Assembly: GCA_964502815.1 (NCBI GenBank)
Contig: CAZCXV010000003.1
Coordinates: forward strand, 4,694-68,693
Source of the DNA: an uncultured Gammaproteobacteria bacterium
Lineage (GTDB): Bacteria; Patescibacteriota; Microgenomatia; UBA8517
Direction of reading: 5' to 3'
DNA: 64,000 bases
This document shows, one piece after another, positions 6,499-56,101 of this stretch (its first letter is position 1; the number at the start of each line of letters is the position of its first letter). Below the pieces are notes generated by a model. The model saw only the letters and a list, made by a program, of their open reading frames with translations. It was not told where the DNA came from and made no database searches. The position numbers were made by a program, and so were the translations under genes.

Positions 6499-6501
6499 AA
6501 G

Positions 6502-7094: not shown

Positions 7095-7121
7095 AGGTAG
7101 AATTGGCTAACAGTATCTAGA

Positions 7122-38683: not shown

Positions 38684-41182
38684 ATGGAAATCCTACAAAT
38701 TACCAAAACAAATAGGAAACTAGCCAAAGGAAAATTAAAAAATGGCAATGGCCACTTAGATCCTAAAAAGGTTAATTGGGACGGGCTTGACTATGAACAA
38801 ATGATTTCTTTAGTAGGTAAACTAAGCGGACCAACACCCGCTCTTCCAGGGGATTTGCCTAAATATGACTGGACACCTCAAGCCTTGCGAGTACTGGCTG
38901 AAAGATATTTTTTGAAAGATGAAGACGGCAATATTTTAGAAGATACGGCTCAAATGTGTTGGCGCGTAGCTTGGGAACTAGCCAGAGCAGAAGTTAAATA
39001 CGGCAAAACTAGGGAAGAAATAGTTGCCTACGCCAAAGATTATTACAATCTAATGATCAAAAGGTGGTTTTTGCCAAATTCTCCAACCCTAATGAATGCT
39101 GGCAAAGGAAATGGTTTGCAATATAGTGCTTGCTATGTTCTTCCGGTGGAAGACTCTCTGCCTGGAATTTTTGACGGCATTAAATATCAGGCCATTGTCC
39201 ACCAAAGCGGTGGCGGAACGGGGTTTTCTTTTTCTAGACTTCGACCAGCAGGCGCCCGGGTCAAGTCGACAAGAGGAGTGGCTTCGGGGCCAGTTTCTTT
39301 TATGCGTATCTACAATGAAGCCACCCAACAAATAAAACAAGGGGGAATGAGGCGGGGAGCAAACATGGGAATATTGCGGGTAGACCATCCGGATGTTTTG
39401 GAATTTATCCATGCCAAGGATGATGGCGCAAGCGTCACAAACTTTAATATTTCGGTGACAGTGACAGACAAATTTATGGAAGCTCTGGCAAAAGGTGAGG
39501 ATTATGAACTTATTGCTCCGCATACTGGTGAAGTAACAGGCAAACTTTCTGCAAAAATGGTTTGGGATGAAATTGCCAAAGGGGCCTGGAAGACGGGAGA
39601 TCCGGGAGTAATCTTCATTGATAGAATAAATCAAGGACCAGGAAACCCAATCAGAAAAGAAGGTTGGCTGGTTGAAAGCACTAATCCTTGTGGTGAGCAA
39701 GAATTATATCCATTTGATGCATGTAACTTAGGAAGTATCTTCTTAACGTATTACGTAAAAGATGGGAAAGTAGATTGGGACAAACTAAAAGAAACCATCC
39801 ATATAGCAGTAAGGTTTTTAGACTCCGTTATTGAAATGAATCCTTTCCCTCTGTCGCAAATTGCCGACACTGTTAAAAAAATTAGAAGGATAGGTTTAGG
39901 TGTTGGCGGCTGGGCAGATATGTTGGTACAAATGGGAATTCCATATGATTCCGAAGAGGCATTAACCTTGGCTGGAAAAATTATGAAGTTTATTAATCAA
40001 GAAGGACACAAAGCAAGTCAGGATTTGGCCCGCGAAAGGGGTCCTTTCCCAATGTATAAAGATAGCATCTACAAAAACACTCCCATGAGAAACTGTACAG
40101 TTACCACAATTGCCCCAACTGGTTCAATAGGAATATTGGCAGGAGCATCGGGAGGGGTAGAACCAAAGTTTGCCATTGCCTATCAGCACATTGTTAAATC
40201 TGAAAATAGAACACTTACCTTTGTCGATGAACTTTTCGAGAGCATGGCCAAAGAAAAGGGGATTTGGAATGAAGATTTGAAGAAAAAGCTTGCAGAACAT
40301 GGAACAGTCCATGATATTGCTGAAGTTCCAGAGAATATAAAGCGGGTCTGGGTGACCGCCCATGAAATCCATCCTGATTGGCATGTAAAGATGCAAGCAG
40401 CGTTTCAAAAATACACCGATAATTCTGTAAGTAAAACTATTAATATGTCAAATAGCGCGACAGTTGAAGACATTCAAAAAGCCTATATGTTGGCTTGGGA
40501 GACTGGTTGTGATGGAATCACTGTTTTTAGAGATGGCTGCAAAAATGAGCAAGTGTTAAATGTTGGTACTAAAAGTGAAGAGTTGTCTACAGCAAAGAAA
40601 AAAGAAGAGGAAAAACTTCAGATGCTCACTGAACCAGTAAAAGAAAGGCCAATGAGGGTAACGGGGGCAACCTACAGGGTAGATACGCCAGTAGGTATTG
40701 CTTTCATTACTGTTAATGAAGATGAAAATGGCCATCCTTTGGAACTATTCGTAAACGTAGGAAAAGCAGGAAGCGATGTGACTGCTATGGCTGAAGCCTT
40801 GGGAAGAACTATTTCTACTTCACTTAGATTTAGAGGAGGACTTTCTGCAAAGGATAGAATTGAAGAAATTGCCAGACAGCTTGCAGGTATTGGGGGAAGA
40901 AGATCGGTAGGTTTTGGCCCTAATAGAATTCTCTCTCTTCCAGATGCTGTTGCCTATGCGCTCTCGGTTCATTTTGGATTCTTAATCAATGGTTGGAACA
41001 AGCAGTCAAAAAACCAACAATTGGCAATTGATGGCGTAAGTGTTTCAACCGACAAGGTAGTTACCTCAAGCGTAGCTCCTGCAAAAAAATTAGGAGACAT
41101 TTGTCCAAAATGTGGTGAGGCAGCCTTTATTTTTGAAGAAGGTTGCAAAAAATGCTACTCCTGTGGACATAGTGAATGCTAA
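38684..41182 (+). CDS. nrdJ: Class II adenosylcobalamin-dependent ribonucleotide reductase with C-terminal zinc ribbon
   Basis: NSPTLMNAGK...SACYVL and NPCGEQEL motifs. The C-terminus is CPKCG...CKKCYSCGH. Confidence 0.9.
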   Translation: MEILQITKTNRKLAKGKLKNGNGHLDPKKVNWDGLDYEQMISLVGKLSGPTPALPGDLPKYDWTPQALRVLAERYFLKDEDGNILEDTAQMCWRVAWELARAEVKYGKTREEIVAYAKDYYNLMIKRWFLPNSPTLMNAGKGNGLQYSACYVLPVEDSLPGIFDGIKYQAIVHQSGGGTGFSFSRLRPAGARVKSTRGVASGPVSFMRIYNEATQQIKQGGMRRGANMGILRVDHPDVLEFIHAKDDGASVTNFNISVTVTDKFMEALAKGEDYELIAPHTGEVTGKLSAKMVWDEIAKGAWKTGDPGVIFIDRINQGPGNPIRKEGWLVESTNPCGEQELYPFDACNLGSIFLTYYVKDGKVDWDKLKETIHIAVRFLDSVIEMNPFPLSQIADTVKKIRRIGLGVGGWADMLVQMGIPYDSEEALTLAGKIMKFINQEGHKASQDLARERGPFPMYKDSIYKNTPMRNCTVTTIAPTGSIGILAGASGGVEPKFAIAYQHIVKSENRTLTFVDELFESMAKEKGIWNEDLKKKLAEHGTVHDIAEVPENIKRVWVTAHEIHPDWHVKMQAAFQKYTDNSVSKTINMSNSATVEDIQKAYMLAWETGCDGITVFRDGCKNEQVLNVGTKSEELSTAKKKEEEKLQMLTEPVKERPMRVTGATYRVDTPVGIAFITVNEDENGHPLELFVNVGKAGSDVTAMAEALGRTISTSLRFRGGLSAKDRIEEIARQLAGIGGRRSVGFGPNRILSLPDAVAYALSVHFGFLINGWNKQSKNQQLAIDGVSVSTDKVVTSSVAPAKKLGDICPKCGEAAFIFEEGCKKCYSCGHSEC

Positions 41183-42018
41183 CCTTTGATTAGTTTTTTA
41201 TCTTCAGGCTCTTTCAAATAGTTATGGCTGGTTGAAACTTTTTTGCCGCTTTTTACTTCGAGCTCTCGTCTAGCGTTTCCGGCAACATCTCCACCTTCTT
41301 TGGCTGCTTTTTTGTTTTCAACAAAACCTTGCACATCTTTGCCTTTGGCAATTTCAGTAGTTGAAGCTTCTCCAAGCATGGAAAAGATTAGTTCGAGTTC
41401 ATTCATGTGATCTCTCAAGTTTTGCCTTTTTAAACCTTTAAAACCTTTGTATTCACTTGGAGTCATGCCGAAAGTTGCATTTGATATCTCTGCAGTAAGG
41501 ATGGCGTATTCCTTCTCTCCTCCGACGTCTCTATTTTTCCATTCTCCAGTTAGTGTTTCTCTAACTTGTATTCCTCGTAATCTTTTGTCAATCCAAGAAT
41601 CAGAATAGCCTTTGGCTTTGTAGAGAGCCCACATTCTTTTTGATGCCAGTTCAGGATCTTCAATTTCCTGTACTCTTTCATAGCCTACTTTAGCCAGCCA
41701 TCTTTTAAATGGTTCTGCTTTTGGAGAGGGAATTGATTGGATTATTCTAAAGATGTTCTCTGTATTAGCACAATTTACTTTTTGAATTCCACCTGGAGTT
41801 AATATTGAAAGGGGGGTGGCAATTTGCCTCCACCCTTTAGAAAGTTGTTCATCTCGTCTACGCATATCCTTAATATAACCTTCAGGTTGTATTGAATCTG
41901 TAAGTGCTAAAACAACATCTGCAATTACAAACCACCATTCGTTGTTATGAATTATTTTTCTAATTTCTTTATCTCTAAAAATTGCTAATTTTGTCTGCAT
42001 TTCTAAATCTTCATTCAT
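41179..42018 (-). CDS. Bro-N / DinD-like family protein (paralog 2)
   Basis: FRIIQSIPSPKAEPFKRWLAKVGYERVQE aligns with the 11066..11905 protein. The 4-nt overlap with the nrdJ stop shows a tight insertion. Confidence 0.65.
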   Translation of the reverse strand: MNEDLEMQTKLAIFRDKEIRKIIHNNEWWFVIADVVLALTDSIQPEGYIKDMRRRDEQLSKGWRQIATPLSILTPGGIQKVNCANTENIFRIIQSIPSPKAEPFKRWLAKVGYERVQEIEDPELASKRMWALYKAKGYSDSWIDKRLRGIQVRETLTGEWKNRDVGGEKEYAILTAEISNATFGMTPSEYKGFKGLKRQNLRDHMNELELIFSMLGEASTTEIAKGKDVQGFVENKKAAKEGGDVAGNARRELEVKSGKKVSTSHNYLKEPEDKKLIKG

Positions 42019-42665: not shown

Positions 42666-43013
42666 ATGTTCTCTGAGAGAGAAAAGAAGCCAAGTGTGCC
42701 TGAAGGAGTTAGAGAAGTGCCTCAAGATTTATCTTTACCTGAAAATATCGAGGCTAAAGATAATGGCATTCAATCTGTCCCTTCTCAGTTTTCTGCGCAA
42801 GTAATGGATGGAGGTCAACCTTTAATTCAAACATCTCAAAATCAAACTGTAACTATAACTCTGCCTGCAGATCCGCAAACCATTGCCGACAATGCTAAAA
42901 AAGGCAATATAGTTGATGCGGCAACCTGGTTTTTTGCCTTTTGGGCGAGAGCTTTTAAAAAGGCAATACATTTTGGTTGGCAAATTATAGCTAAACCGGA
43001 AACCGGAAATTAA
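42666..43013 (+). CDS. Hypothetical small protein
   Basis: No motif. It sits in the same operon-like string as the ATPase. Confidence 0.3.
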   Translation: MFSEREKKPSVPEGVREVPQDLSLPENIEAKDNGIQSVPSQFSAQVMDGGQPLIQTSQNQTVTITLPADPQTIADNAKKGNIVDAATWFFAFWARAFKKAIHFGWQIIAKPETGN

Positions 43014-43019: not shown

Positions 43020-45365
43020 ATGTATCAGGAAAGTACAGACGTTAATTTTTCAGCAATATTAATTGGCCTAATATTATTGGGTTTTTTGGTAGTTGCAATT
43101 GCCCTTTTGGGCTATGTTGCCTATATCTTTTATAAAAACAGAAAAAGGGAAGACCGGTCAATTGATTCAGTACTTCTACAGGTTGCAGTTCAGCGGTCTA
43201 ATGAAATAAAGATTGATGCCATGGAACAAATCTTTGCCGTTGTTTCTTCCCTGAAAAAAAGTGGTTGGAAACAAAAGTTTGATATCCAGCCAACAGTATC
43301 GTTTGAACTGGTGGCCCAGAAAGAAGACATTAGGTTTTTTGTCTGGATACCCAAAAAGTTTCAGGACCTGATTGAAAAAACAATTCACGGCGCTTATCCG
43401 GACGCCGAAATATTGGAAATTCCGGAATATAATATCTTTACCGAAGAAGGGAAAGTTGCCTACAAATCTCTGCAATTAAAGAAAGACAACTTCTATCCAA
43501 TCAGAGTTTACAAAGATATGCCGATTGATCCAATGAGCGCCATTACTTCAGCTTTGGCCAAAATGGGTGAGGGAGAAGCTGCTAGTATTCAATTTATTCT
43601 CTCTCCGACCCAAATTTCTTGGCAGAAAGCAGGTAAGGATTTTATTTCTTCGACTAAAAAGAGTGAATCGGATCCCGAAAAAGCCAAATTTTCAACTCCC
43701 GCGAAAACTTTAGAATCAGTTGAGCAAAAAATATCAAAACCCGGTTTTGAAGTTTCCATTAGAATGGTTGTAGTAGCAGGAAGTGAAGATGTTGCTAAAG
43801 CCCATTTAACCAATATCTCTGCCTCTTTTGAACAGTTTAATGGTGACTTAAACGGTTTTGGAGGAAGAACAGTTAAAAATAAAGGGGCTTTTATTGAAGA
43901 CTTTCTCTATAGGTATCAGCCAATGTTTAATTTCCAAAAAAATCACCCATCAGTTTTAAATATTGAAGAGTTGGCAACTGTTTTTCATTTTCCAAACAAA
44001 CAAATTTCCACCCCACACATTTTTTGGCTTAACGCCAAGAGTGCCCCTGCCCCGGCTGAAATCCCCAACGAAGGCCTATATTTGGGAATGAGTGACTTTA
44101 GGGGGATTCGAAGGCCAGTTTATATTACCGATGAAGATAGATTGAGGCATATGTATATCATTGGAAAAACAGGTGTTGGCAAAAGTGAACTTTTAACCGA
44201 CATGATGATGCAGGATATCAAAGCCGGCAAGGGAATTTGTTTTATCGATCCTCACGGCGATGCTGCCGAAAAACTCTTGGAACTGATTCCTCCCCAAAGA
44301 GCCGAAGATGTGATTTATTTTGATCCAGGAGACAGTGACAGGCCAATGGGAATAAATCTATTGGAAGCAAAAACTGAAGATCAAAAGCATTTTGTGGCAA
44401 CATCAATCATTAATCTGATGTATAAGCTTTTTGACCCTTATAAGACTGGCATTGTCGGTCCGCGTTTTGAGCATGGAGTTAGAAATGCAATTCTAACGGC
44501 TCTTGCAGTTCCTGGGAGTACTTTTATTGAAGTTATGAAACTACTGCAAAACCCTGGAGGGCCATATTTGCAAAGATATCTGGATGCTTTGGACGACCAG
44601 ATGGTTAGAGAATATTGGACAGAGCAGATTGCCCATACGTCAGAATTTCACAAGTCAGAAACGCTTGACTATACAGTTTCCAAGTTTGGCCGATTTGTGA
44701 CCAATAAAATGATTAGAAATATTATCGGCCAAACCCAATCGGCATTTAATTTTAGAGAGGTTATGGACAATCAAAAAATCTTAATTGTTAATTTGGCTAA
44801 AGGAAAATTGGGTGAGGAAAACTCCAACTTTCTAGGCCTAATATTAATTCCAAGAATCTTGATGGCAGCCCTTAGTAGGCAAGATACCCCAGAAAACGAA
44901 AGAAAAGATTTTTATTTATATGTTGATGAGTTCCAGAATTTTGCCACTCCAGATTTTGCCGTTATTCTTTCAGAAGCCAGAAAATATCATTTGGGCTTAA
45001 TTGTAGCCAATCAGTTTATAGGGCAAGTTGAAGAGGAAGTAAAAAATGCCATTTTTGGCAATGTGGGAACAAAAATGTCTTTTAGAATTGGCGTCTCTGA
45101 TGCAAGCTACATGGCCCATGAATTTGCCCCAACTTTTGCTGAGGATGATCTATTAAATATTGATAAATATCATGTTTATATTAATACCATTGTTAAAAAT
45201 GAACCCGTGCCATCTTTTTCGATGGATGTTACCAAAGATATGGAAGCTGAAAAAAAGCTTAGAAACCCTAGGGTGGGAGAAATAATTAAAGAAATGAGCC
45301 GGCTTAAATATGGCAAAGATGTCAGACTAGTGGACGCTGAAATCTCCAGAAGAAGTGGCTATTAA
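43020..45365 (+). CDS. Membrane-anchored FtsK/HerA/VirD4 (TraG/TraD)-superfamily P-loop ATPase
   Basis: N-terminal TM helix with KNRKRE on the inside. Walker A is IIGKTGVGKSE, with a Walker B-like FYLYVDEFQNF. ARKYHLGLIVANQFIGQ is an arginine-finger/sensor block typical of this superfamily. Confidence 0.55.
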   Translation: MYQESTDVNFSAILIGLILLGFLVVAIALLGYVAYIFYKNRKREDRSIDSVLLQVAVQRSNEIKIDAMEQIFAVVSSLKKSGWKQKFDIQPTVSFELVAQKEDIRFFVWIPKKFQDLIEKTIHGAYPDAEILEIPEYNIFTEEGKVAYKSLQLKKDNFYPIRVYKDMPIDPMSAITSALAKMGEGEAASIQFILSPTQISWQKAGKDFISSTKKSESDPEKAKFSTPAKTLESVEQKISKPGFEVSIRMVVVAGSEDVAKAHLTNISASFEQFNGDLNGFGGRTVKNKGAFIEDFLYRYQPMFNFQKNHPSVLNIEELATVFHFPNKQISTPHIFWLNAKSAPAPAEIPNEGLYLGMSDFRGIRRPVYITDEDRLRHMYIIGKTGVGKSELLTDMMMQDIKAGKGICFIDPHGDAAEKLLELIPPQRAEDVIYFDPGDSDRPMGINLLEAKTEDQKHFVATSIINLMYKLFDPYKTGIVGPRFEHGVRNAILTALAVPGSTFIEVMKLLQNPGGPYLQRYLDALDDQMVREYWTEQIAHTSEFHKSETLDYTVSKFGRFVTNKMIRNIIGQTQSAFNFREVMDNQKILIVNLAKGKLGEENSNFLGLILIPRILMAALSRQDTPENERKDFYLYVDEFQNFATPDFAVILSEARKYHLGLIVANQFIGQVEEEVKNAIFGNVGTKMSFRIGVSDASYMAHEFAPTFAEDDLLNIDKYHVYINTIVKNEPVPSFSMDVTKDMEAEKKLRNPRVGEIIKEMSRLKYGKDVRLVDAEISRRSGY

Positions 45366-48300
45366 AAATATGACAGAACAAACTGCCCCAAAGGAAGAAA
45401 CTGCATTTATTAGCGATAATTTAAATAACTTTAATCGGCTAGCACAAACTTATACGTCCTTGCGGGATGTTGAGAAGGTCGACGGAGATCAAGTAAATGA
45501 AGTGTTGAGTGGACATCGTCGCCTTAAATATTACTTAGAAGCTGCGGATTTAGTTGACGGTGAAGGCAATATAGGAAAGAAATTATTTTTACCAATCGGT
45601 CAAAGTAGACATTTAGATGATGTTTTATGGGAAATAAAACATCCTTTATTAGAAAGAATTGACAGAGAGCTATATATGTTTGATGAAGAGGAAACCTTTG
45701 TTAATTCTTACGAACAAGCACTTGAAGAATACAAAACAGTAAGAACAATTAGGGTATATATTGAAGAAAACGCCAGGGATTCAGAACAAAAACGCCAAAT
45801 TTTAGCAAGTTTAGATGTGGCCGAGCGGGTTACTCAACTTGCAACTGTTGAGAAACTCCTTAATTGTGCCGACAAAGCCTTTATGCTTGATGCTGTTGCG
45901 AATTCTGATGTGCCATTGGTTGACAGGGAACTTGATATGTCAAAATGGGATGATCTTACTCAAGAAGAGAAACATGCTGGTGGCCTTTTAGTAAATTTGT
46001 ATACCATTGCAACTCTCAAAGCCGGAGTCAATATTAGACAAGCTTATGAAAATGCAACCCATCAACTGAAACAAGATGAACAAAAAGCAGCTGGTGTATT
46101 GGAGGAAAAACCTTTGGGTGATTATGAATTATATAAAGATTCTCAAGAAATTTTACCGAGACACTTTCATCAAAGACACCATAGAGATGAAGATGAAGAG
46201 TTTGAACATGGGTATGTAAGAAAAATTGCACATGATTATGAGTTTAATCAACAAGCGGTAGATTATGAATTTAAACATATTGCAATGGCCATTAGTGAAG
46301 GATTAGTGTCTTTAGATCCAACTGTTGGTGAGGTACAAAGGTTATATGATTTAGTTTTGCCTTATCTGTTTAGCGAAAACAGTTGGTATATCTCTATAAA
46401 TGCCTTAAGTACAATGCGCGATCCACGAGCCCTCTTTGTACTTTTAGACCAATTGCAACAAAGCCAGGAGTTAATGGGCGGCGAAAAACATGCAGAAGCG
46501 ATCGTCAATATAGCGAATAATCCTTTGTCTCCCAAGATTATGGATCAATATCTACAAACAGCCTCCGATGAGCAAAAATTTGCAGTAGAAATGGCTAACA
46601 ATCCGTTAGTTAGACAAATAGTTATGAAAGATAATTCCTCATCCCCCAATAGACTTTGGAATAGAAATGTCAGAGTTTTACCTGAACTACTTTTAGGTTC
46701 ACCAAAAAGGTTGGCAAATTTGAAGTTTATAGAAATTTATATAGATTATGCAAAACAAAAAGGCATCTCAGTTGATAAAAATGAATACTCAGATATGTTG
46801 AATACGCTAAATATGTATTCTGGAGAAGCGGCAATTAAGTTGTTTACAGCTAACCTAGATGAAATAGTACCTCTTTTAGCAAAGAAAGCTCATGAAATTG
46901 GCTTTGCCGATTGGGAAAACAATATGCCTGAGTTGTATAAAGCAGTTGTTGGATATAAGGATGGCACCGGTTTTGTTCTTGAATTAGCCCTGGCAATTGG
47001 TATTAGTACTGAGGCAGTTTCTAAATTAGAAGCACTATATCTATCAAAAGATTTAAGAGGGGGTGAACACTCCAAAAAAGAAATACTAAATGGCATAATT
47101 GTTTTTTTAGGTAAAAATGGTTCAAGTGAAACACTCGAAACAATTGTCTCAAAAATAAGTGGAACTAAAGAAGACCCAAAAAGAGTGAGAAGAATATTTA
47201 GAATGTTAACAACCTTAAATGATCTAGGTAGACTTGACTTATCTCACAGTGAAATGTTTGACGGAGGTTCTTTGGATGAAATTGCCAACACTATTCAAAA
47301 TAAATTGGCTGAGGTTGTTAAAGAGAAACTAAATTTAACTACTGAAAGCATTTCTCCAGAAAGATGGGATAAACTCTTTAGTGAGGGGTCTTTGGACATG
47401 GTCATGTCCTTATATGCTCAATATACTGAAAAAAGCAAAGACTCTGCTGCCTCACTAATTCTTGAAATTGGTAAACATATTGTTATCGGGGATTTTGCCG
47501 AGTGGAGAAATACTAATCCATTTTCAAAAGAAATTTTAGAATATTATCTACCTAACCCCAATCAGCAAATTGCCTGGCTTACTCCAATAGAACCTATTAA
47601 AAGATTATTCAAATTAAGTAGGGAAGAACAAATATTGGGTGTGGTTGGAGAAATTAACAGAATTGCAAGTGAAGCTAAATCTCATGCTGAAAAAATATTA
47701 AATGTTGGAGAAAAACCACTGAACTTTTTTTCAGAAGAAAATTTAACTCAGCTTGAAAAAAGAAGACAAATTGTAGAAACCCAAATTAAAAATTTTGAGG
47801 AGGGTGGAGGAATTTCCCTTAAAAACTTAAGACGAACGAAGGATCAATTAGACGACCAGTTACGAATTATAAATGGAATTCAGTATTTGTTGAATTTGTC
47901 AATTGAAGACTTTAATCAAGGCGGGATAAGAGATACGCTTAAGAAAACAATTAGTACCTTGATTCGAATGCAAAATCTACAACAATCTGCTGCTGATCTT
48001 CAGCAGATTGAAAAAACAATCTTGCCTACATTAAATAAAATTGTTACCGAAGTAGAAGTTACTGGCCAAGATACTGATGACTATATGTCTCTTTTTAAAG
48101 CTGGTATGGAGCCCAGAGAGACATGTCAGAGTGTCCGAAATGGTTCACATAATTATTGTCTACCAACAACTATTGCCACGCCAGATATTAGATTGGATAA
48201 TTCTAGAATTGGTTCTGTTGTAGAAAACAGAGCCTTATCAAAATTGAAAAAGATGAGTACAGAGTTAGTCTCAGACCAAACTGTTATTATGTTGGAACCA

Positions 48301-48636
48301 CCTTATGGTTTGTCAGAAACTCATCCAGGATATGTGGTTACTTTAGAAATTGCAATTAAAAAAGCTGAAAACGTAGGAGTACCGTTAGTTATTGCTCAAC
48401 CCATTGATATGGCTACTGGTGCTGATCACGCTACAACTATCTCACTTCTTGATATGGTTGCAAGAAACAATGGTGCTCGCGTAACTAGAGTAGGGAATGT
48501 AAACTTACATGGTAAAAAAGGCATTGGAGAATATGAATATAGTGATACTTTGGGTGAAACCATTGACTTTGATGTGCCAGTGGCAATGGAGGAAGTATAT
48601 GTTGTCTATCCACAAAACGTAGCCATGGTATTCTAA
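45355..48636 (+). CDS. Large (1093 aa) cytoplasmic hypothetical protein, translationally coupled to the ATPase
   Basis: The start overlaps the ATPase stop by 11 nt. There is no TM helix and no catalytic motif. Internal repeats (ANNPLSPKIM / ANNPLVRQIVM) suggest an alpha-solenoid. Confidence 0.5.
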   Translation: MAIKNMTEQTAPKEETAFISDNLNNFNRLAQTYTSLRDVEKVDGDQVNEVLSGHRRLKYYLEAADLVDGEGNIGKKLFLPIGQSRHLDDVLWEIKHPLLERIDRELYMFDEEETFVNSYEQALEEYKTVRTIRVYIEENARDSEQKRQILASLDVAERVTQLATVEKLLNCADKAFMLDAVANSDVPLVDRELDMSKWDDLTQEEKHAGGLLVNLYTIATLKAGVNIRQAYENATHQLKQDEQKAAGVLEEKPLGDYELYKDSQEILPRHFHQRHHRDEDEEFEHGYVRKIAHDYEFNQQAVDYEFKHIAMAISEGLVSLDPTVGEVQRLYDLVLPYLFSENSWYISINALSTMRDPRALFVLLDQLQQSQELMGGEKHAEAIVNIANNPLSPKIMDQYLQTASDEQKFAVEMANNPLVRQIVMKDNSSSPNRLWNRNVRVLPELLLGSPKRLANLKFIEIYIDYAKQKGISVDKNEYSDMLNTLNMYSGEAAIKLFTANLDEIVPLLAKKAHEIGFADWENNMPELYKAVVGYKDGTGFVLELALAIGISTEAVSKLEALYLSKDLRGGEHSKKEILNGIIVFLGKNGSSETLETIVSKISGTKEDPKRVRRIFRMLTTLNDLGRLDLSHSEMFDGGSLDEIANTIQNKLAEVVKEKLNLTTESISPERWDKLFSEGSLDMVMSLYAQYTEKSKDSAASLILEIGKHIVIGDFAEWRNTNPFSKEILEYYLPNPNQQIAWLTPIEPIKRLFKLSREEQILGVVGEINRIASEAKSHAEKILNVGEKPLNFFSEENLTQLEKRRQIVETQIKNFEEGGGISLKNLRRTKDQLDDQLRIINGIQYLLNLSIEDFNQGGIRDTLKKTISTLIRMQNLQQSAADLQQIEKTILPTLNKIVTEVEVTGQDTDDYMSLFKAGMEPRETCQSVRNGSHNYCLPTTIATPDIRLDNSRIGSVVENRALSKLKKMSTELVSDQTVIMLEPPYGLSETHPGYVVTLEIAIKKAENVGVPLVIAQPIDMATGADHATTISLLDMVARNNGARVTRVGNVNLHGKKGIGEYEYSDTLGETIDFDVPVAMEEVYVVYPQNVAMVF

Positions 48637-48680
48637 ATTACTTTTTTTATCAAATCTCCAGAGAAAAACAAAAGTGAGTT

Positions 48681-48689
48681 TGCTATAAT
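48681..48689 (+). promoter_or_regulatory. Extended -10 (TGcTATAAT) upstream of the UAU tRNA
   Basis: TGnTATAAT lies 13 nt upstream of the tRNA 5' end. The same tttgctataat string occurs upstream of tRNA-Asn on the minus strand (5863..5873). Confidence 0.4.
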
Positions 48690-48702
48690 AGCTTCAGAAC
48701 TT

Positions 48703-48774
48703 GGGCCTGTCGTTCAACGGTTAGGACGGGTCTCTTATAAAGACCAAACGATAGTTCGACTCTATCCAGGCCCA
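48703..48774 (+). tRNA. tRNA with anticodon UAU (nominally Ile, reading AUA)
   Basis: Manual cloverleaf: acceptor GGGCCTG/CAGGCCC, D-stem GTTC/GGAC, anticodon stem GGTCT/AGACC, loop CTTATAA, T-arm GATAG-TTCGACT-CTATC, 4-nt variable loop. Confidence 0.7.
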
Positions 48775-48808
48775 CAGATTTGAAAAAAAAGGATTGTCGG
48801 GGATGGCA

Positions 48809-48834
48809 CTCGCCGCGCCCGCCCCCTCGGCGAG
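48809..48834. other. GC-rich hairpin (7-bp CTCGCCG/CGGCGAG stem, 12-nt loop) in an otherwise AT-rich spacer
   Basis: A perfect inverted repeat. On the minus strand a T8 run follows about 19 nt later, so it is a possible terminator for the 48891..49772 gene, though not canonical. Confidence 0.35.
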
Positions 48835-48890
48835 CGCTGCAAAGCTCTGTTTATATACTCAAAAAAGCCGCCGATTATTTTACTAAAATT

Positions 48891-49772
48891 CTACTCCGAT
48901 ATTGTTAAGGTTTCAGATTCTACAATTGACTGTGCTCCGAGTGTAAATCTATCTCTTTTTTCAAGTGAATAATAAAATTTAATTTTGTAGTTGCCTGGAA
49001 CCATCTTAGAAAAAGTTTTTTCTGGTATTACATTTGTTATATTTTTATTCGGCAGTAGAGTCTCAACGGACGGTGCAAGCATACAGACTTTTTGATCACC
49101 CTGTAAAGGGGTTGAATTATTGTCTGGAATGATAAAAACCTGTACTAAACTAGATGCGCAAGTTTCTGGGAAATAGTAGACGTTATTTTGCGTGTTATTT
49201 GTAATTGTAAAAACAATTGGTTCACTCGCTCTATATGTGGTTTTTTCAAGCTGTATAGCAACTCCAGTTTTCTGTTTCTGGGCATCTGATGGTTGGATAT
49301 TCGTTTGGCTCGAAAATTGGCACTTGCCACTGGAGCAAATAGGTTTCTCTGATAGTTCGCATGGTTTACAAGCAACGTTTCCCCCACAAGATTTTAATTG
49401 TTGAGATGAATAGTCTTTCCCAAATTCGTATTGTTCCCAATTCTTTGTTCTAATTAATTCTTTGTTTATAGCTTTTGGACAGCTGCAGCAGGAAGTTGCC
49501 TGTATTCCTATGATGCAATCATTATCTTGGGAACAGGCTAATTCACTTGGTAACGACGGTAGCGTTGGTATTATATTTGAACTCGATCGGTTGCTTTGAT
49601 ATATAGAAAATGCATACAAACCCAAAATTCCAAAAAAAAGGATGGCCAAAATAAACGTAGATATCATCCAGTAATTTATCTTTGGTTTTACTGAAATTTG
49701 CATAAGTTGATCGACGGAATTTTGTCCGATTTGTTGAGTATTTTGATCCCCAACATTTACTTGATTTTCCAT
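48891..49772 (-). CDS. Membrane-anchored Cys-rich extracytoplasmic protein
   Basis: Single TM helix followed by multiple CxxC/CC pairs (SCCSCP, CKPC). Confidence 0.4.
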   Translation of the reverse strand: MENQVNVGDQNTQQIGQNSVDQLMQISVKPKINYWMISTFILAILFFGILGLYAFSIYQSNRSSSNIIPTLPSLPSELACSQDNDCIIGIQATSCCSCPKAINKELIRTKNWEQYEFGKDYSSQQLKSCGGNVACKPCELSEKPICSSGKCQFSSQTNIQPSDAQKQKTGVAIQLEKTTYRASEPIVFTITNNTQNNVYYFPETCASSLVQVFIIPDNNSTPLQGDQKVCMLAPSVETLLPNKNITNVIPEKTFSKMVPGNYKIKFYYSLEKRDRFTLGAQSIVESETLTISE

Positions 49773-49948
49773 ATATATCTCCAGAAAATGATATCATATT
49801 CTCGAGTTTCAAGTAAGCTAAACTGAATCTAAGTTCCTTAAAATTTTTGCGTTTTTCTTTTGAAATCATTTCCTTGTAAGAAATGATTTGTCCGAGCCAT
49901 CTTTGAAAATCAGTCTGTATTTTTTCGTAAAGAGTCCACAGTTGAAGT

Positions 49949-50809
49949 CTAAAGCTCTTCTAACTTTTGTTTCTTTCCTGGGTCAGTAATACCTGCAAGT
50001 TCCAGATATCTTTCTGTAGTTGACAGTCTTTTGTGACCTACTGCTTGGCAAATTGTAACTAGGTCTACTCCTCTTTTAAGATTTTCCACAATAAATGTTG
50101 TCCTTAAGTCATTTACCGAATACTGGGGAATTTCTGCTTTTTGCATATACCTGTCTATTGCTGCCCTAATATTTCTGACTGCCAAGGGCTTGCCATTTTT
50201 ACTTACAAAGACATATACAGAATCTGTTTTCGGCCTTTGAGAAAGATAGTTATTTAAAGAAGTTTTTGCCGGGCCATTAAAGCCAATTTGTCTTTCTGGT
50301 TGGGTGGCATATTTTTCAATTATGATGGTGTCTGATTTCACATTTTCATTTTTTAGGCTGGCAACTTCTGATATTCTCATTCCAGTTTGCAAAATAAGCT
50401 CAACTATGGCGGCAATTCTGTTGTCTGTTTTAACTATGTCTCTTAAAGCTCGGTATTCAAGAGGAGAAAGAAACTTTGGCGAAGAGGAATCAATTTGAGG
50501 GTGTGAGACATCCTTAGAGGGGTCGAAGTTGCCCAATCCTTCAGACATCAACCACCTAAAAAAAGTTTTGACTGCGTTTAGTTTCCTGGAGGCTGACTTA
50601 GGAGTATATTTTTGCTGCAAGAGAGCGTCCCTAAAGGCCTCAATATCTTCGTGCCTGACATCGTCTGAAACAACCTTACTTCTTTTTTGTAAAAAAACGG
50701 TCAACTGTTCAAGATCTGCTCTGTAGGCTAGAATGGTTGAGGGAGACCTATTTTTGTCATTTAAGTCCTGGATAAATTTTGGCAGAAGTATCTTTAAAGG
50801 TTCTTGCAT
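49949..50809 (-). CDS. Tyrosine site-specific recombinase, XerC/XerD-like
   Basis: AYRADLEQLTVFL, RISEVASL, GHKRLSTTERYLEL, with catalytic R, H-x-x-R and Y. At 286 aa it is the size of Xer. Confidence 0.85.
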   Translation of the reverse strand: MQEPLKILLPKFIQDLNDKNRSPSTILAYRADLEQLTVFLQKRSKVVSDDVRHEDIEAFRDALLQQKYTPKSASRKLNAVKTFFRWLMSEGLGNFDPSKDVSHPQIDSSSPKFLSPLEYRALRDIVKTDNRIAAIVELILQTGMRISEVASLKNENVKSDTIIIEKYATQPERQIGFNGPAKTSLNNYLSQRPKTDSVYVFVSKNGKPLAVRNIRAAIDRYMQKAEIPQYSVNDLRTTFIVENLKRGVDLVTICQAVGHKRLSTTERYLELAGITDPGKKQKLEEL

Positions 50810-51261: not shown

Positions 51262-51291
51262 TAACTTAAACTCCACTTATTTAGTTTTGTG

Positions 51292-51361
51292 TTGCGGGGC
51301 TGGGAGTTGAACCCAGCCTGAAAGATTATGAGCCTTTCGTGCAGCCGTACACTACCCCGCA
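51292..51361 (-). tRNA. tRNA anticodon CAU (elongator Met or Ile2-lysidine type; not initiator-like)
   Basis: Acceptor TGCGGGG/CCCCGCA (fully paired). Anticodon stem AAAGG/TCTTT with loop CTCATAA. T-arm CTGGG-TTCAACT-CCCAG. Confidence 0.7.
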
Positions 51362-51478: not shown

Positions 51479-51550
51479 GCCAGGGTAGCTCAATGGTGGA
51501 GCAGCAGATTCATAAACTGCAGGTTAAGAGTTCGATCCTCTTCCCTGGTA
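51479..51550 (+). tRNA. tRNA anticodon CAU (Met; G1-U72 wobble at the acceptor end)
   Basis: Acceptor GCCAGGG/CCCTGGT, D-stem GCTC/GAGC, anticodon loop TTCATAA, T-arm AAGAG-TTCGATC-CTCTT. Confidence 0.7.
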
Positions 51551-51601
51551 CTTAAAGATTAATTCCTTTCTTTTTAGCTTCGAAAGACTTAGAATACAAA
51601 T

Positions 51602-52945: not shown

Positions 52946-55900
52946 ATGACCGATAATACAAAAAACGGCAATGGCCACAAAAATGGCAAAAACGGAAAAC
53001 CTACTAAAATTGTTAAAGTAGATTTTAATATTTGGAAAATAGCTCTAACAGTTTTAACCTTTCTTTTTATGGCGCCACTGTTTTTGTCTGTTTTTAAAGA
53101 CAAGTTAGATCAAAACAAAATTGAGCTTTCGCAGGCTTTAGCAGACATCAAAGAACAAAAAATTGAAAAGGTAGTTGTTGAAGAAAATAAGCTTCTTTTG
53201 ACTTATAAAGATGGCACAAATAAAGTTACATCTAAAGAAAACAGCATCTCGTTTCCAGAACTTATGGATAGATCTGGTATAAACTTAGCTGACGTTAAGT
53301 ATGACACTAATGACCAATCTCTCCTCAAGGCTTTTGCAGATTTAGTTAGTGTAGTTTTACCCATTGGTCTAATGGCAGTTCTTCTTTATTACTTTCTAAG
53401 GGCTCAGAATAAAGGTGCTTCAGATATTTTTTCCTTTGGCAGGAGCAAAGCCAAGTTGTTTGCTAAAGGTAAGCAAGATGTCAAGTTTGAAGACGTTGCA
53501 GGAATTGATGAAGCCAAAAGAGAACTAACCGAAATCGTTGATTTTTTGAAAAATCCTGCAAAGTACAAAAAAATTGGCGCCAGAACACCAAAAGGAGTTT
53601 TATTGGTTGGTCCCAGTGGAACTGGAAAGTGTATAACTGGAGAATCTATGGTGTGGACAAATAAGGGATTAATGGAGATCAAAGATATACCAAGATACTA
53701 TTATGTAGACAAAAATAATAATCGTACTTATGGCGCTTCGCTAGCAGGCTTTGATTTAGATAAGATCAAAAATAAAAATAGTTTTGCTTCTCATTGGTAT
53801 GATCTTGGTATTCAAAAAACAATAAAAATAAGATCTTCACAAGGTTACAACCTAGAAGGAACTCCCGAACATCCTGTTATATCTATGACTAATGATGGTG
53901 TTTTAAAATATAAAAAATTAAGCGAAGTTGAAAAAGGAGATTATTTAGCAATTCAATATGGAAGAAATATTTTTGGTGATTTAAATATGGTTGACCAAGA
54001 TACAGCCTATTTAATGGGACTTTTAACTGGTGATGGCAACATGAGTATTTCAAGTAGAGTTGGAATAACAAGTATTGACCCCGAAATAGTTAAATTTTTT
54101 AGAACTTATGTAAATAAACGATATCCTGATTCTGCAATTACCCCTAATGGTCAAAGTTATTTAATCTCAAACTGGGAATTTAAGAAATATTTGTACCAAT
54201 TGGGAATGAGCTATTTGCTTTCTTTTGATAAGGTTGTTCCTCCAACTATACTGCAGTCCCCAAAAAATATTCAAGTAGCTTTCTTACAAGGATTATTTGA
54301 CACCGATGCTTCAATTGAAAAAAGACATGGAGCCTTCGAATATGCCACGGTTAGCGAAAAGATGGCAAAGCAGGTGCAAATGATGATGCTTAATTTGGGA
54401 ATAATTGCTAGCTTGAATCAAAAAGGAAAGGTGGAAGATGGACATTACAGACCAGTTTATAGAATTACGATGACTGGAAGTGGACTTACTGCTTTTGCAA
54501 AAGAAGTTGGTTTCAAATTAACTAGAAAGAAAGAATTATTGTCTAAAAATGTTTCTAAAATGGGGCGTGTCAATACTAATATCGATGTAATTCCTGGTGT
54601 TGGTCGTCTAATTGAAGAGTCATGGAGGGAATTATCTAATAAAAAATTAAGTACAGAAAAATTGTCTAGAACAATAGATAAAGTTAGAAAAAGAAATAGG
54701 ATTTCTAGACAAACCCTCTCGGATTATTTGATTTATTCAAAATCTGTAAGTGACAATGTATTACATTATGAATTTATATATAGTCTGCTGAAATCTAATT
54801 TGTTCTTTTCTGAAGTTGTAGAAAAAACAAATAGTGAGAATCGTGTTTATGATTTCACAGTTCCAAAAACTCATTCCTTTATTTCAAATGGTTTTATTTC
54901 TCACAATACATTGCTTGCAAGAGCACTAGCCGGAGAAGCAGGTGTACCATTCTTTTCCATGGCAGGGAGTGAATTTATGGAGGTACTTGTAGGTGTGGGT
55001 GCATCCCGCGTGAGGGATTTATTTTCCCAAGCAAAAGCTTCGGCACCTTCGATTATTTTTATAGATGAGATTGATGCTATAGGTAGGCAGCGTGGTGGAA
55101 GAAATTTCATGGGAGGACATGACGAAAGAGAACAGACTTTAAACCAAATATTAGTTGAGCTGGATGGTTTTACGCCAAATGATCAAGTTCTAGTTCTTGC
55201 TAGCACTAACCGTGGAGATGTTTTGGATCCGGCACTACTTCGCCCTGGTAGATTTGATCGAAGAGTTATGCTTGATATGCCAGACAAAGAAGGTAGAGGA
55301 GAAATCTTAAAAATCCACGCTAGGGGCAAGAAATTTTCCGACAGTGTTAATTGGGGAAGAATTGCCGATAGGACAGTAGGTTTTTCTGGAGCTGATCTTG
55401 AAAATATGCTTAACGAAGCAGCAATTGCAGCAGCTAGACACGACAAAGAAGCAATTGAAATGAATGATATTGAAGAGGCGGCAACTAAAGTAAAACTAGG
55501 GCCAGCCAGAAAAAGACTCCAGAGCAAGGAAGACAGAACGATAACAGCAGCCCATGAAGCGGGTCATGCCATTGTCACCCATTTCCTTCCCAAGATGGAT
55601 CCGGTTCACAGAATCTCAATTGTTGCTAGGGGAATGAGTTTAGGACATACTTTAATTCCTCCTGCTGCAGACAGGTCTCATGAAACTAGGGAGAGATTTA
55701 TCCAACAGCTTGCAGCTATGCTTGGAGGAAGGGCTGCAGAAGAAGTGGTCTTTAATGAGATGACCTCTGGAGCCTCTAATGATATTGAATTGGCAACTAG
55801 GCTAGTCAGAGCAATGGTTGAAGAATATGGTATGAGTTCTCTGGGACCTATTAATTGGGGATTACAATCAAGCTATGGTGATTTTGGAAATGTTAACTAT

Positions 55901-56101
55901 ACGGAAAGTTCAAACATTTCCCAGAAAATGCAGGAAAAAGTTGATCTGGAAGTGGCCAAATTAATGGAAACTGCGCACCAAAAAGCTTTGACACTTGTCA
56001 AAAAGAACAGAAAACTTTTAGACAAAGTAACAGCTGCTTTATTAGAAAAAGAAACCATAGACCGAGACGAGTTTGAAAAAATTGTGGGGAAGAAAAAATA
56101 A
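52946..56101 (+). CDS. ftsH: ATP-dependent zinc metalloprotease FtsH, interrupted by an in-frame intein in the Walker A loop
   Basis: N-terminal TM helices. GPSGTGK| is followed by the intein, and the extein resumes |TLLARALAGEAGVPFF. The second region of homology, the HEAGH zinc site and the C-terminal helical domain are present. The extein is about 625 aa. Confidence 0.9.
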   Translation: MTDNTKNGNGHKNGKNGKPTKIVKVDFNIWKIALTVLTFLFMAPLFLSVFKDKLDQNKIELSQALADIKEQKIEKVVVEENKLLLTYKDGTNKVTSKENSISFPELMDRSGINLADVKYDTNDQSLLKAFADLVSVVLPIGLMAVLLYYFLRAQNKGASDIFSFGRSKAKLFAKGKQDVKFEDVAGIDEAKRELTEIVDFLKNPAKYKKIGARTPKGVLLVGPSGTGKCITGESMVWTNKGLMEIKDIPRYYYVDKNNNRTYGASLAGFDLDKIKNKNSFASHWYDLGIQKTIKIRSSQGYNLEGTPEHPVISMTNDGVLKYKKLSEVEKGDYLAIQYGRNIFGDLNMVDQDTAYLMGLLTGDGNMSISSRVGITSIDPEIVKFFRTYVNKRYPDSAITPNGQSYLISNWEFKKYLYQLGMSYLLSFDKVVPPTILQSPKNIQVAFLQGLFDTDASIEKRHGAFEYATVSEKMAKQVQMMMLNLGIIASLNQKGKVEDGHYRPVYRITMTGSGLTAFAKEVGFKLTRKKELLSKNVSKMGRVNTNIDVIPGVGRLIEESWRELSNKKLSTEKLSRTIDKVRKRNRISRQTLSDYLIYSKSVSDNVLHYEFIYSLLKSNLFFSEVVEKTNSENRVYDFTVPKTHSFISNGFISHNTLLARALAGEAGVPFFSMAGSEFMEVLVGVGASRVRDLFSQAKASAPSIIFIDEIDAIGRQRGGRNFMGGHDEREQTLNQILVELDGFTPNDQVLVLASTNRGDVLDPALLRPGRFDRRVMLDMPDKEGRGEILKIHARGKKFSDSVNWGRIADRTVGFSGADLENMLNEAAIAAARHDKEAIEMNDIEEAATKVKLGPARKRLQSKEDRTITAAHEAGHAIVTHFLPKMDPVHRISIVARGMSLGHTLIPPAADRSHETRERFIQQLAAMLGGRAAEEVVFNEMTSGASNDIELATRLVRAMVEEYGMSSLGPINWGLQSSYGDFGNVNYTESSNISQKMQEKVDLEVAKLMETAHQKALTLVKKNRKLLDKVTAALLEKETIDRDEFEKIVGKKK
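53630..54907 (+). other. Intein (426 aa) with LAGLIDADG homing-endonuclease domain
   Basis: Block A CITGESMVWT with Cys1. Block B GTPEHPV. The two LAGLIDADG motifs are YLMGLLTGDGNM and FLQGLFDTDAS. The terminal block is VYDFTV...FISHN followed by a +1 Thr. Confidence 0.8.

Follow-up and report, generated by a model that had tools for sequence, protein, structure and literature searches.

A total of 5,713 VirD4-type coupling protein (T4CP) homologues have been reported in 2,918 of 3,035 Patescibacteria genomes; they are mostly distant from virB4, and they were non-essential in S. epibionticum (Quinonero-Coronel et al. 2025, PMC12102498). The essential type IV secretion system (T4SS) of Saccharibacteria is encoded by a locus without a recognisable coupling protein (PMC10633639). 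The 781-aa ATPase characterized here, encoded in the 64,000-nt stretch of DNA that we analysed (the window), has the architecture of the chromosomal homologues of the former study, in which a P-loop ATPase with TraG-D_C is combined with DUF8128 and a transmembrane (TM) anchor, and its gene also lies away from any virB4 locus as far as the window shows. No substantive difference was found between the ATPase and these homologues, of which it is a member. New relative to the two reports are the small upstream gene, the tRNA-Ile(UAU) landmark and the cargo slot of the ATPase locus.

Directly downstream of the ATPase gene lies a gene for a large protein, and a preliminary description of the window had proposed that the two form a novel translocation or defence module. 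As a conserved system, this module is not supported: the pairing is not conserved, the ATPase is a backbone gene and the large protein is encoded elsewhere at 9 of 12 informative loci. We judge the pair to be a juxtaposition, possibly with a facultative link, and not a conserved module. The features of the locus are given in Table 1.

Table 1. Features of the ATPase locus and its surroundings, in window coordinates.
Feature	Position	Strand	Remarks
Bro-N domain protein, PADLOC candidate PDC-S13	41179..42018	-	separate variable slot, NrdJ/PduO
Small protein, 115 aa	42666..43013	+	conserved neighbour upstream of ATPase
ATPase ORF, 781 aa	43020..45365	+	membrane-anchored; DUF8128 and VirD4/TrwB-like (T4CP-like) P-loop ATPase
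ATPase N-terminal hydrophobic membrane anchor, residues 5-40	43032..43139	+	Kyte-Doolittle
ATPase Walker A GKTGVGKS, residues 382-389	44163..44186	+	translation
ATPase Walker B YVDEFQNF (residues 634-641) and ARKYHLGLIVANQ block (653-665)	44919..45014	+	translation
Large protein, 1088 aa from ATG 45370	45370..48636	+	cytoplasmic; predicted alpha-solenoid and C-terminal GNAT-fold domain
Helical solenoid, residues ~315-890	46312..48039	+	family-conserved; phmmer alignments, DSSP of AF2 model
HEAT/alphaRep-like unit around MRDPRALFVLLDQL	46414-46455	+	within large-protein solenoid
C-terminal alpha/beta domain, residues 894-1088	48049..48633	+	predicted GNAT topology
tRNA-Ile (anticodon UAU)	48703..48775	+	ARAGORN; Rfam 61.4 bits
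293-aa protein, one hydrophobic segment	48891..49772	-	second lineage-specific cargo, between tRNA-Ile and Xer
Xer-type tyrosine recombinase	49949..50809	-	Pfam Phage_integrase and SAM-like domains

The ATPase is a core-like member of the DUF8128 family

Both open reading frames (ORFs) of the preliminary description are real (43020-45365, + strand, 781 aa; 45355-48636, + strand, 1093 aa when counted from a GTG). The placement of the first product in the FtsK/HerA/VirD4 ASCE superfamily with a membrane anchor was correct, as judged from Pfam and the TM segment. Specifically, TrwB_AAD_bind (32.5 bits), DUF87 (26.5 bits) and TraG-D_C (22.8 bits) all exceeded their gathering cut-offs, each match spanning part of the model, and the single N-terminal TM helix that had been claimed corresponds to the sole hydrophobic segment of the protein, with a hydropathy maximum of 3.18 in a 19-residue window. 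Walker A, Walker B and the ARKYHLGLIVANQ block were likewise all present in the translation, and the stretch carrying the latter two is 69% identical to the C-terminal ATPase fragment of another locus, L030. PF26449 (DUF8128) is annotated on an identical protein of contig L004 and on all 120 listed homologues, and it is from these records that the assignment is taken. With PF26449, a TrwB/DUF87-type P-loop domain and a membrane anchor, the ATPase belongs to the DUF8128 family. Among 5,331 matches, the best 120 were 68-85% identical over 95-100% of the length, and homologues are named [quoted passage not shown] in Woesebacteria, Microgenomates and Patescibacteria. The ATPase is a Patescibacteria-wide, core-like and already reported backbone gene.

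As in the canonical T4CPs (TrwB of R388, VirD4, TraD and DotL/IcmO, the last being the best PDB sequence match at E 1.8e-6), an N-terminal anchor is combined with a RecA-like ASCE ATPase bearing Walker A and B. Unlike them, the protein carries an extra DUF8128 domain of ~300 residues, its matches cover 60-90 residues at the P-loop plus a short C-terminal piece, and there are no relaxase or T4SS genes near it within the window. No full-length match to curated T4CP models was found in NCBIfam, whose T4CP equivalogs gave scores of 15-40 bits against cut-offs of 250-800 (SXT_TraD, 40.5 bits, cut-off 366; CD1115 family, 32.1 bits, cut-off 250). These matches mostly comprised ~60-90 residues at the P-loop, and only that to CD1115 spanned residues 372-691. 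VirB4, relaxase and other T4SS Pfam matches were absent from the 48 window ORFs scanned, which included all those of at least 500 aa and left out ~16 smaller ones; a PcfJ-like ORF at 32176-33741 scored below threshold. A canonical FtsK/SpoIIIE translocase was also considered and rejected, as neither the motor domain (FtsK_SpoIIIE) nor the gamma, KOPS-binding domain (FtsK_gamma) was matched at E ≤0.01 in Pfam or NCBIfam.

A variable slot within a conserved gene order

The ATPase gene is embedded in a housekeeping block consisting of NrdR, NrdJ, PduO, the small protein, the ATPase, tRNA-Ile(UAU), Xer and DivIC, and the more extended order PBP...NrdR-NrdJ-PduO-small protein-ATPase-tRNA-Ile-Xer-DivIC-tRNA-Met-TrpRS/TyrRS-FtsH is common to the related loci L001, L002 and L003. 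The small protein ends in an aromatic/hydrophobic motif, ATWFFAFW-RAFKKA, and matched nothing in Pfam, NCBIfam, PADLOC or PHROG. In L001, L002 and L003 a homologue of it (59%, 41% and 42% identity, respectively; alignment A4) immediately precedes the ATPase, and a 119-aa ORF takes its position in L012. On the 3' side of the ATPase, tRNA-Ile(UAU) was found at 12 loci (L001-L003, L012, L016, L017, L019-L021, L023, L025 and L029), at spacings from 26 to 4,617 nt.

The interval between the ATPase and this tRNA is a variable slot that the large gene fills exactly: blastn homology to L001 ends at 45368 and restarts at 48701. In relatives the slot either carries cargo, including toxin-antitoxin (TA) pairs, or is empty: it contains Gp49/HTH in L001, a minus-strand AAT gene in L003 and two small ORFs in L023, and nothing (26-103 nt) in L002, L017, L019-21, L025 and L029. 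The location of the large gene in such a slot indicates that it and the ATPase are not a fixed two-gene system, and the entry of unrelated cargo such as TA modules supports an insertion hot spot as the explanation.

Other parts of the neighbourhood vary as well. Positions 48777-49955 showed no homology to L001, and the 293-aa protein encoded there shows a TM-like segment (residues 31-60) and sub-threshold Pfam matches only. The slot between NrdJ and PduO, which in the window holds the Bro-N gene (Pfam Bro-N, E 2.6e-12; PADLOC PDC-S13, E 1.7e-110), contains an APH kinase in L001 and an unrelated 320-aa ORF in L003 and is empty in L002. The recombinase gave its best NCBIfam matches to XerC, XerA and XerD, and its place next to DivIC is shared by L001-L003; as part of the conserved backbone, we rejected the gene as the integrase of an inserted element. 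The accessory context proposed earlier applies to the ATPase-tRNA interval, which is variable, and not to its surroundings, where Xer/DivIC synteny is conserved and all relatives examined have tRNA-Ile(UAU) after the ATPase. GC content was unremarkable across the region.

The large protein combines a predicted solenoid with a divergent GNAT fold

The two genes had been described as overlapping at stop and start, a reading that hinges on the GTG at 45355 with which the mechanical ORF begins. A start at ATG 45370 instead, 4 nt past the TAA of the ATPase, is favoured both by the gene as called in the database (P0001, 1088 aa) and by the conservation of M1, P7 and L18 among aligned family members. 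The corresponding gap in homologous pairs is 3 nt (L012) and 2 nt (L030); note that gaps of such shortness are the norm between co-directional genes across the whole window. As the preliminary description had it, the product is cytoplasmic, with no TM segment or signal detected, and lies outside any recognisable family, no match being obtained in Pfam, NCBIfam, PADLOC or PHROG. A word-indexed search returned only the protein itself, and an exhaustive phmmer search of 1.84 billion cluster representatives found 71, the closest of 33% identity. Phage or plasmid copies were searched for and not found, and the GC3 of the gene (0.25) is similar to that of adjacent genes. The large protein belongs to a rare, fast-evolving and uncharacterised family.

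Phmmer alignments to homologues begin at about residue 319, the N-terminal ~310 residues being lineage-specific. An alignment of 70 sequences yielded an AF2 model (pLDDT 84.7, pTM 0.73) with a solenoid composed entirely of helices by DSSP. The solenoid-like internal repeats of the preliminary description were thus only partly borne out: self-BLAST revealed no internal repeats, while the predicted all-alpha solenoid contains one HEAT/alphaRep-like unit that is weakly detectable. Specifically, the A2 profile matched alphaRep/HEAT designs at a full-sequence E of 5e-5, with single repeats scoring weakly, and the Pfam models HEAT_2 and HEAT_PBS gave weak matches in only one or two of 14 family members. 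The protein would thereby resemble HEAT/ARM-type scaffolds (alphaRep designs, PBS-lyase HEAT repeats) in its modelled all-helical solenoid of ~890 residues and in one unit with a HEAT_PBS-like "DPRA(I/L)P-L" signature; it differs from them in that sequence comparison picks out just one or two units.

A catalytic signature had been denied to the protein. However, its last 195 residues form a domain with predicted GNAT fold topology and near-invariant residues, namely D903, G912, P915, C919, Q920, S921, G925 and N928, followed by R954, E976, Y979, K998, Y1057, S1058 and D1059. The closest structures are NatD/Naa40 (4u9w), Eis-like 2hv2, AANAT-like 4fd7 and PaiA (1tiq), at identities of 4-9%. Pfam GNAT models (Acetyltransf_*) gave no match at E ≤1 in 14 close family members, and neither did GNAT entries in a PDB profile search with the family. 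The acetyl-CoA motif Q/R-x-x-G-x-G/A at beta4-alpha3 is absent from the alignment as read by eye; this region reads EPPYGLSETHPGY in the window protein, with LLEPxYTTSE / EPxYTTSExxxIY as the family consensus. In its place the family has an invariant set of its own (C919, E976, Y979, Y1057-S1058-D1059). The near-invariant Cys919, Glu976, Tyr979, Lys998 and Tyr-Ser-Asp 1057-1059 suggest an acyl-/group-transfer site or ligand pocket that would be non-canonical for acetyl-CoA.

The two genes are mostly found apart

We counted adjacency from either side in a small sample of 12 informative loci per side, and found the two genes next to each other at three. In L012 (Microgenomates bacterium Gr01-1014_5) and L030, the large gene follows the ATPase with the order, orientation and 2-4-nt spacing seen in the window. 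At nine of the 12 ATPase loci there is no large gene, and the nine remaining large-protein loci lie elsewhere among housekeeping genes, for example between SecE-NusG-L11-L1/ASCH and PBP (L006), between DnaX and SHMT (L007), after MreB and before DHODH (L008) and within a pentose-phosphate cluster (L031); L009, L010, L014 and L015 present other contexts. In a neighbour-joining tree, the window protein forms a deep long branch that is not sister to the L012/P0126 pair, indicating that the adjacency either arose early and was lost several times or arose on two occasions. Either history exceeds random expectation, barring a strong hot spot for insertions at the slot, and the recurrence in a second, non-sister lineage (L012/L030) makes a facultative functional link possible. 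The outcome that the preliminary description had named as refuting its module was thus observed by half: the ATPase is core-like and the large protein mostly unlinked to it; on the other hand, the former is no canonical FtsK and the latter is not a core gene.

Discussion

We consider it probable that the locus holds two functionally separate genes lying side by side in a compact Patescibacteria chromosome of the Microgenomates type. The ATPase would be the lineage's conserved DUF8128/VirD4-like "orphan coupling protein", held in the membrane by its N-terminal helix and, by analogy with the TrwB/VirD4/FtsK/HerA superfamily, presumably assembled into a ring, in which ATP hydrolysis at Walker A/B may drive the movement of a polymer, either DNA or protein, at the membrane. 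The small protein encoded just upstream would be its conserved partner, with no T4SS locus linked here. As for the large protein, whose gene occupies the variable stretch from the ATPase stop codon to tRNA-Ile(UAU), the most likely role of the modelled HEAT-like solenoid is to bind a partner macromolecule, which would be presented to the C-terminal GNAT-fold domain. The two genes are probably co-transcribed without forming an obligate module.

A closer relationship between the products, which we regard as unlikely, would have the solenoid/GNAT-like protein serve the ATPase as a client, as an adaptor or as a partner that modifies substrates in some Microgenomates, the genes being translationally coupled where adjacent and acting in trans where apart. 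Genes for substrates or adaptors often lie beside those of coupling proteins, which recruit substrates; long helical-repeat proteins are typical interaction scaffolds, and the large protein has this build. The three adjacent loci fall on two non-sister branches with the same orientation and gaps of 2-4 nt, for which we estimate that chance placement directly downstream on the same strand would occur about once in 2,000 per event (~1,000 genes). However, such a partnership has to be set against the 9 of 12 loci without adjacency on either side, against an ATPase ~70% conserved over thousands of genomes when the large protein counts 71 cluster representatives, against the unrelated cargo, such as TA modules, received by the same slot, and against the lack of a signal or TM segment in the large protein. 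Less probable again, and in our judgement doubtful, is that the solenoid plus GNAT-fold family constitutes an undescribed Microgenomates class of enzyme or adaptor working with the orphan T4CP-like ATPase. If this were true, the large protein might tag a substrate for translocation by the ATPase, or deliver it, the tight gene order would be the surviving trace of the partnership, and a first functional handle would be gained on a near-universal Patescibacteria coupling-protein homologue.

Anti-phage defence of the HerA-ATPase-plus-large-effector type is highly improbable and, because co-occurrence of the ATPase and the large protein is not conserved, largely refuted. The locus does resemble HerA/FtsK defence pairs (HerA-Sir2, HerA-DUF4297, NurA-HerA) in that a gene for an ASCE ATPase of their superfamily is directly followed by a large gene in the same orientation; in addition, the PDC-S13 Bro-N gene lies 1 kb upstream, TA modules enter the same slot in relatives, and the ATPase weakly matches PADLOC mad8 (E 4e-16, P-loop region only) and HerA models (E 2.6e-5, 21 bits, ~40 residues). 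Unlike in those pairs, the ATPase has a membrane anchor and is encoded by a near-universal backbone gene within housekeeping synteny rather than by an island gene, the pairing is not conserved, and the partner, of which no phage or plasmid copies were found, has no PADLOC match and no nuclease, NADase, Sir2, TIR or protease domain. It is just as hard to credit a conjugative or integrative element in which the ATPase would be a true coupling protein and the large protein its cargo, integrated at the tRNA via the neighbouring tyrosine recombinase. The T4CP-type Pfam matches, the tRNA and recombinase downstream and the sub-threshold PcfJ-like ORF are in line with such an element; nevertheless, the order ATPase, tRNA-Ile, Xer, DivIC is identical in all relatives, which marks it as backbone and not insertion, the recombinase scores best as XerC/XerA/XerD, and the Pfam scan of 48 window ORFs and the GC content point the same way. 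Neither att-type direct repeats flanking the ATPase block nor relatives without the whole block were seen, and no defence, conjugation or phage signature was found at the locus.

With the two genes read as separate, the locus reveals no new system and mostly shows how gene compaction in tiny genomes mimics operon-like modules. Through the large protein, the "dark matter" proteome gains a rare family whose structure is well predicted and combines an alpha-solenoid with a divergent GNAT fold. The ATPase family is among the most conserved Patescibacteria families of unassigned function, a coupling-protein homologue without an adjacent secretion system, and the contrast between its stable neighbours (the small upstream protein, tRNA-Ile(UAU), Xer and DivIC) and its unstable cargo slot narrows the search for its function.

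Setting and Family of the ATPase

The window encodes NrdR, a B12-dependent NrdJ, a PduO-type adenosyltransferase, a Xer-type recombinase, DivIC, TrpRS/TyrRS, FtsH, two PBPs, glycolytic and pentose-phosphate enzymes and RecF, at an overall G+C content of 33-42%. This gene content, together with the source names of the ATPase homologues (Woesebacteria, Microgenomates and Patescibacteria), indicates that the window comes from the chromosome of a Patescibacteria (CPR) bacterium. We compared it with the loci of three relatives, L001-L003, whose ATPases are 85%, 73% and 71% identical. The conserved order on the upstream side is PBP, AF_1845, Rce1-like, DUF5667, NrdR, NrdJ, PduO, small ORF and ATPase, followed downstream by tRNA-Ile(UAU), Xer, DivIC, tRNA-Met, aaRS, tRNA_bind and FtsH. 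The product of the small ORF, which has a conserved aromatic C-terminal motif and was present upstream of the ATPase in all four genomes compared, is the only conserved protein-coding neighbour of the ATPase, and matched no known family in Pfam, NCBIfam, PADLOC or PHROG. In L012, another relative's locus, this position is taken by a 119-aa ORF, and tRNA-Ile(UAU) lies downstream of the ATPase in every locus having downstream sequence.

Features of the window
Feature	Position	Strand	Remarks
Region with serine recombinase and tRNA-Asn	758-5812		several zinc-ribbon membrane proteins and Trypsin_2 protein ahead of the recombinase
Large serine recombinase	4295-5767		adjoins tRNA-Asn
tRNA-Asn	5738-5812	-
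521-aa ORF	32176-33741	+	sub-threshold PcfJ-like match, 24.3 bits vs 25 cut-off
Bro-N protein	41179-42018	-	PADLOC candidate defence family PDC-S13, E 1.7e-110; PHROG 15286 match
Small protein	42666-43013	+	115 aa; homologous ORF directly upstream of ATPase in L001-L003 (59%, 41%, 42% identity)
ATPase	43020-45365	+	781 aa
Large protein	45370-48636	+	1088 aa from ATG (1093 aa from GTG 45355)
tRNA-Ile(UAU)	48703-48775	+
G+C-rich hairpin-like stretch	48800-48850		after tRNA; folding no better than shuffled (z = -0.15), no Rfam match
tRNA-Met(CAU), two	51291-51361, 51479-51551	divergent	flank DivIC/aaRS junction
FtsH	52946-56101	+	1051 aa; intein with LAGLIDADG homing endonuclease inside AAA domain
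Fic/DOC family protein	61103-62170	+	adjoins RecF
Second Bro-N ORF	63005-63895	+	near window end

Several other features of the window were recorded. The region 758-5812 possibly represents an element that integrated at a tRNA, and one of the two CAU tRNAs could serve as initiator or as a tRNA-Ile of the lysidine type. FtsH is intein-free (~618 aa) in L002 and L003, and inteins were found elsewhere in NrdJ of L002 and in UDP-glucose dehydrogenase of L012.

Both open reading frames of the preliminary description were recovered, and its reading of the ATPase sequence held: a single hydrophobic segment at residues 5-40 provides the N-terminal membrane anchor, and Walker A GKTGVGKS, Walker B YVDEFQNF and ARKYHLGLIVANQ lie at residues 382-389, 634-641 and 653-665, respectively. 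Pfam matches to TrwB_AAD_bind (32.5 bits), DUF87 (26.5 bits) and TraG-D_C (22.8 bits) were all above cut-off, each partial on the model, and matches to the NCBIfam T4CP equivalogs were far under their cut-offs. PF26449 (DUF8128) is present in the precomputed annotation of the identical protein and of all relatives. Canonical FtsK identity was rejected, since neither Pfam nor NCBIfam gave an FtsK_SpoIIIE or gamma-domain match in the ATPase. The proximity of the Xer and DivIC genes had also raised an FtsK-like function in resolving chromosome dimers, which was rejected; this proximity carries no specific signal because the whole ~25-kb block is syntenic.

The homologue search returned 5,331 matches, and the best 120 of these were 68-85% identical over the full length, a conservation typical of a core gene. 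The ATPase also strongly matched PHROG 5156, in accord with the occurrence, in large Bacillus phages and deep-sea phage D6E, of remote full-length homologues sharing the DUF8128 plus ATPase architecture (74-88% of the query aligned at 20-25% identity; e.g., Bacillus phage G gp156, JN638751.1 91000-93081). A survey of Patescibacteria reported 5,713 VirD4-type T4CP homologues in 2,918 of 3,035 genomes, just 148 of the homologues being near virB4; the T4CP homologue was dispensable in S. epibionticum, and exaptation was held possible (PMC12102498). Furthermore, the essential T4SS locus of Saccharibacteria is without a recognisable coupling protein (PMC10633639). The ATPase belongs to a known family that has been reported before. 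By analogy with its superfamily, it would form a membrane-anchored ring in which ATP hydrolysis is coupled to DNA or protein movement.

The Large Protein Belongs to a Rare, Undescribed Family

We next consider the large protein. Its start had been taken to overlap the ATPase stop, but this overlap is probably unreal: the database gene call (P0001, 1088 aa) starts at ATG 45370, and M1, P7 and L18 are conserved in the family alignment when counted from this codon. The junction reads TAT TAA aaat ATG, leaving a gap of 4 nt. Note that co-directional genes in the window are generally spaced by -17 to +30 nt, so that the closeness of the two genes is not distinctive. Scanning 42-50 kb for promoters and terminators gave background levels, which are therefore uninformative on co-transcription.

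The large protein had no match in Pfam, NCBIfam, PADLOC or PHROGs and no TM segment, and the internal repeats previously ascribed to it were not found by self-BLAST. Its codon-position G+C resembles that of its neighbours. Word-indexed homologue searches, with the single sequence or a 46-sequence profile, returned the large protein alone, and the family was detected by exhaustive phmmer only, which gave 71 cluster representatives among 1.84 billion, the closest at 33% identity. These homologues are mostly 1,000-1,500 aa long and aligned to query residues ~320-1085; the members that carry names originate from Daviesbacteria and Uhrbacteria. Strict search patterns for the large protein matched 5 of 185,579 species-representative genomes, and no family copies were found in phage, plasmid and IMG/VR collections.

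The single-sequence AlphaFold model was unusable (pLDDT 36.7), and the AlphaFold2 model from a 70-sequence alignment (pLDDT 84.7, pTM 0.73) was used. It shows helices from residue 16 to ~890, with low confidence at 56-103 and 248-281, and a HEAT/alphaRep-like unit gave a weak signal around residues 340-420. Residues 894-1088 are predicted to form a beta/alpha domain with the GNAT order of elements. A BFVD fold search gave weak GNAT-type and non-specific helical matches, and the remaining fold-search matches were generic helical bundles. D903, G912, P915, C919, Q920, S921, G925, N928, R954, E976, Y979, K998, Y1057, S1058 and D1059 are near-invariant in the C-terminal domain, and the canonical acetyl-CoA motif is absent from its beta4-alpha3 region. 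The protein in the window is divergent, with consensus residues W922, D937, N939, K940, S1051 and N1053 all replaced. In P0187, a distant homologue of 2,037 aa, the shared C-terminal domain is followed by a fused, genuine Pfam GNAT domain in which the R-x-x-G-x-G motif is intact, a tandem GNAT-like arrangement. An hhalign match between the C-terminal domain profile and this GNAT region was discarded as artefactual, since P0187 was within the profile.

These results indicate that the large protein represents an undescribed, rare family with a catalytic-looking domain of known fold. The solenoid would likely bind a macromolecule, and the pocket of the predicted GNAT fold (Cys, Glu, Tyr and Ser-Asp) would likely modify or bind a ligand, probably without the canonical acetyl-CoA binding mode.

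The ATPase-tRNA-Ile Interval Behaves as a Cargo Hot Spot

In blastn of the window against L001, homology ended at 45368 and resumed at 48701, indicating that the large gene exactly fills the slot between the ATPase stop and tRNA-Ile, which spans 45366-48702 of the window. The slot was empty in five lineages and elsewhere held toxin-antitoxin pairs (Gp49/HTH; MazE/PIN), an acyl-CoA:6-aminopenicillanic acid acyl-transferase (Pfam AAT)-family gene or small ORFs. The interval behaves as a cargo hot spot. A second variable slot lies between NrdJ and PduO, and here holds the Bro-N/PDC-S13 gene.

Length and content of the ATPase-tRNA-Ile slot
Locus	ATPase stop to tRNA-Ile (nt)	Content
L002, L017, L019-21, L025, L029	26-103	empty
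L016	318
L001	756	Gp49/HTH toxin-antitoxin pair
L003	1,056	AAT gene, opposite strand
L023	1,138	two small ORFs
Window	3,337	large protein
L012	4,617	large protein, MazE/PIN, 226-aa ORF

Relationship between the ATPase and the Large Protein

The preliminary description had proposed the two genes as a translocation or defence module.

Contexts of large-protein homologues whose flanks are informative
Locus	Context
L006/L013	between SecE-NusG-L11-L1/ASCH and PBP
L007/L011	between DnaX and SHMT
L008	after MreB, before DHODH
L031	inside pentose-phosphate cluster
L009, L010	other contexts
L014, L015	ATPase not found within flanks
L005	the 55 nt before the gene contain stop codons in all three frames
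L012 (Microgenomates bacterium Gr01-1014_5)	PduO, 119-aa ORF, ATPase 2875-5220, large protein 5224-8277, MazE, PIN, 226-aa ORF, tRNA-Ile
L030	ATPase C-terminal fragment ends 445, large protein starts 448, then PIN pair

The large protein was ATPase-adjacent in three of the 12 loci with informative flanks, window included, and the pair is therefore not a conserved entity. Among 12 distinct loci counted from the ATPase side, the large gene was present in three and other cargo in 3-4, and the slot was empty in five. A defence reading was rejected, as the PADLOC matches of the ATPase (mad8, HerA) are confined to its P-loop region and the ATPase lies in conserved synteny; its place in the backbone shared with L001-L003 also led us to reject a conjugative-element reading. 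The best reading is a juxtaposition of a core-like orphan T4CP-type ATPase with a rare solenoid/GNAT-fold protein in a cargo slot, the stable partners of the ATPase being the small protein encoded before it and the tRNA-Ile landmark after it.

The arrangement in the window is nevertheless repeated in two loci, L012 and L030, and this recurrence exceeds random placement, estimated at ~1 in 2,000 per event. The large proteins of L012 and L030 are 63-65% identical and nested in the core clade, and that of the window forms a deep long branch, so that adjacency occurs on two non-sister branches. If the slot is a hot spot for insertion, this can account for the recurrence, as can an ancient arrangement with repeated losses. 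A facultative functional link between the two proteins would also account for it, and we consider this unlikely given how many of the informative loci hold the large gene apart from the ATPase. More improbable still is a facultative partnership in which the large protein serves the ATPase as adaptor or enzyme. If true, however, such a partnership would illuminate the orphan T4CP.
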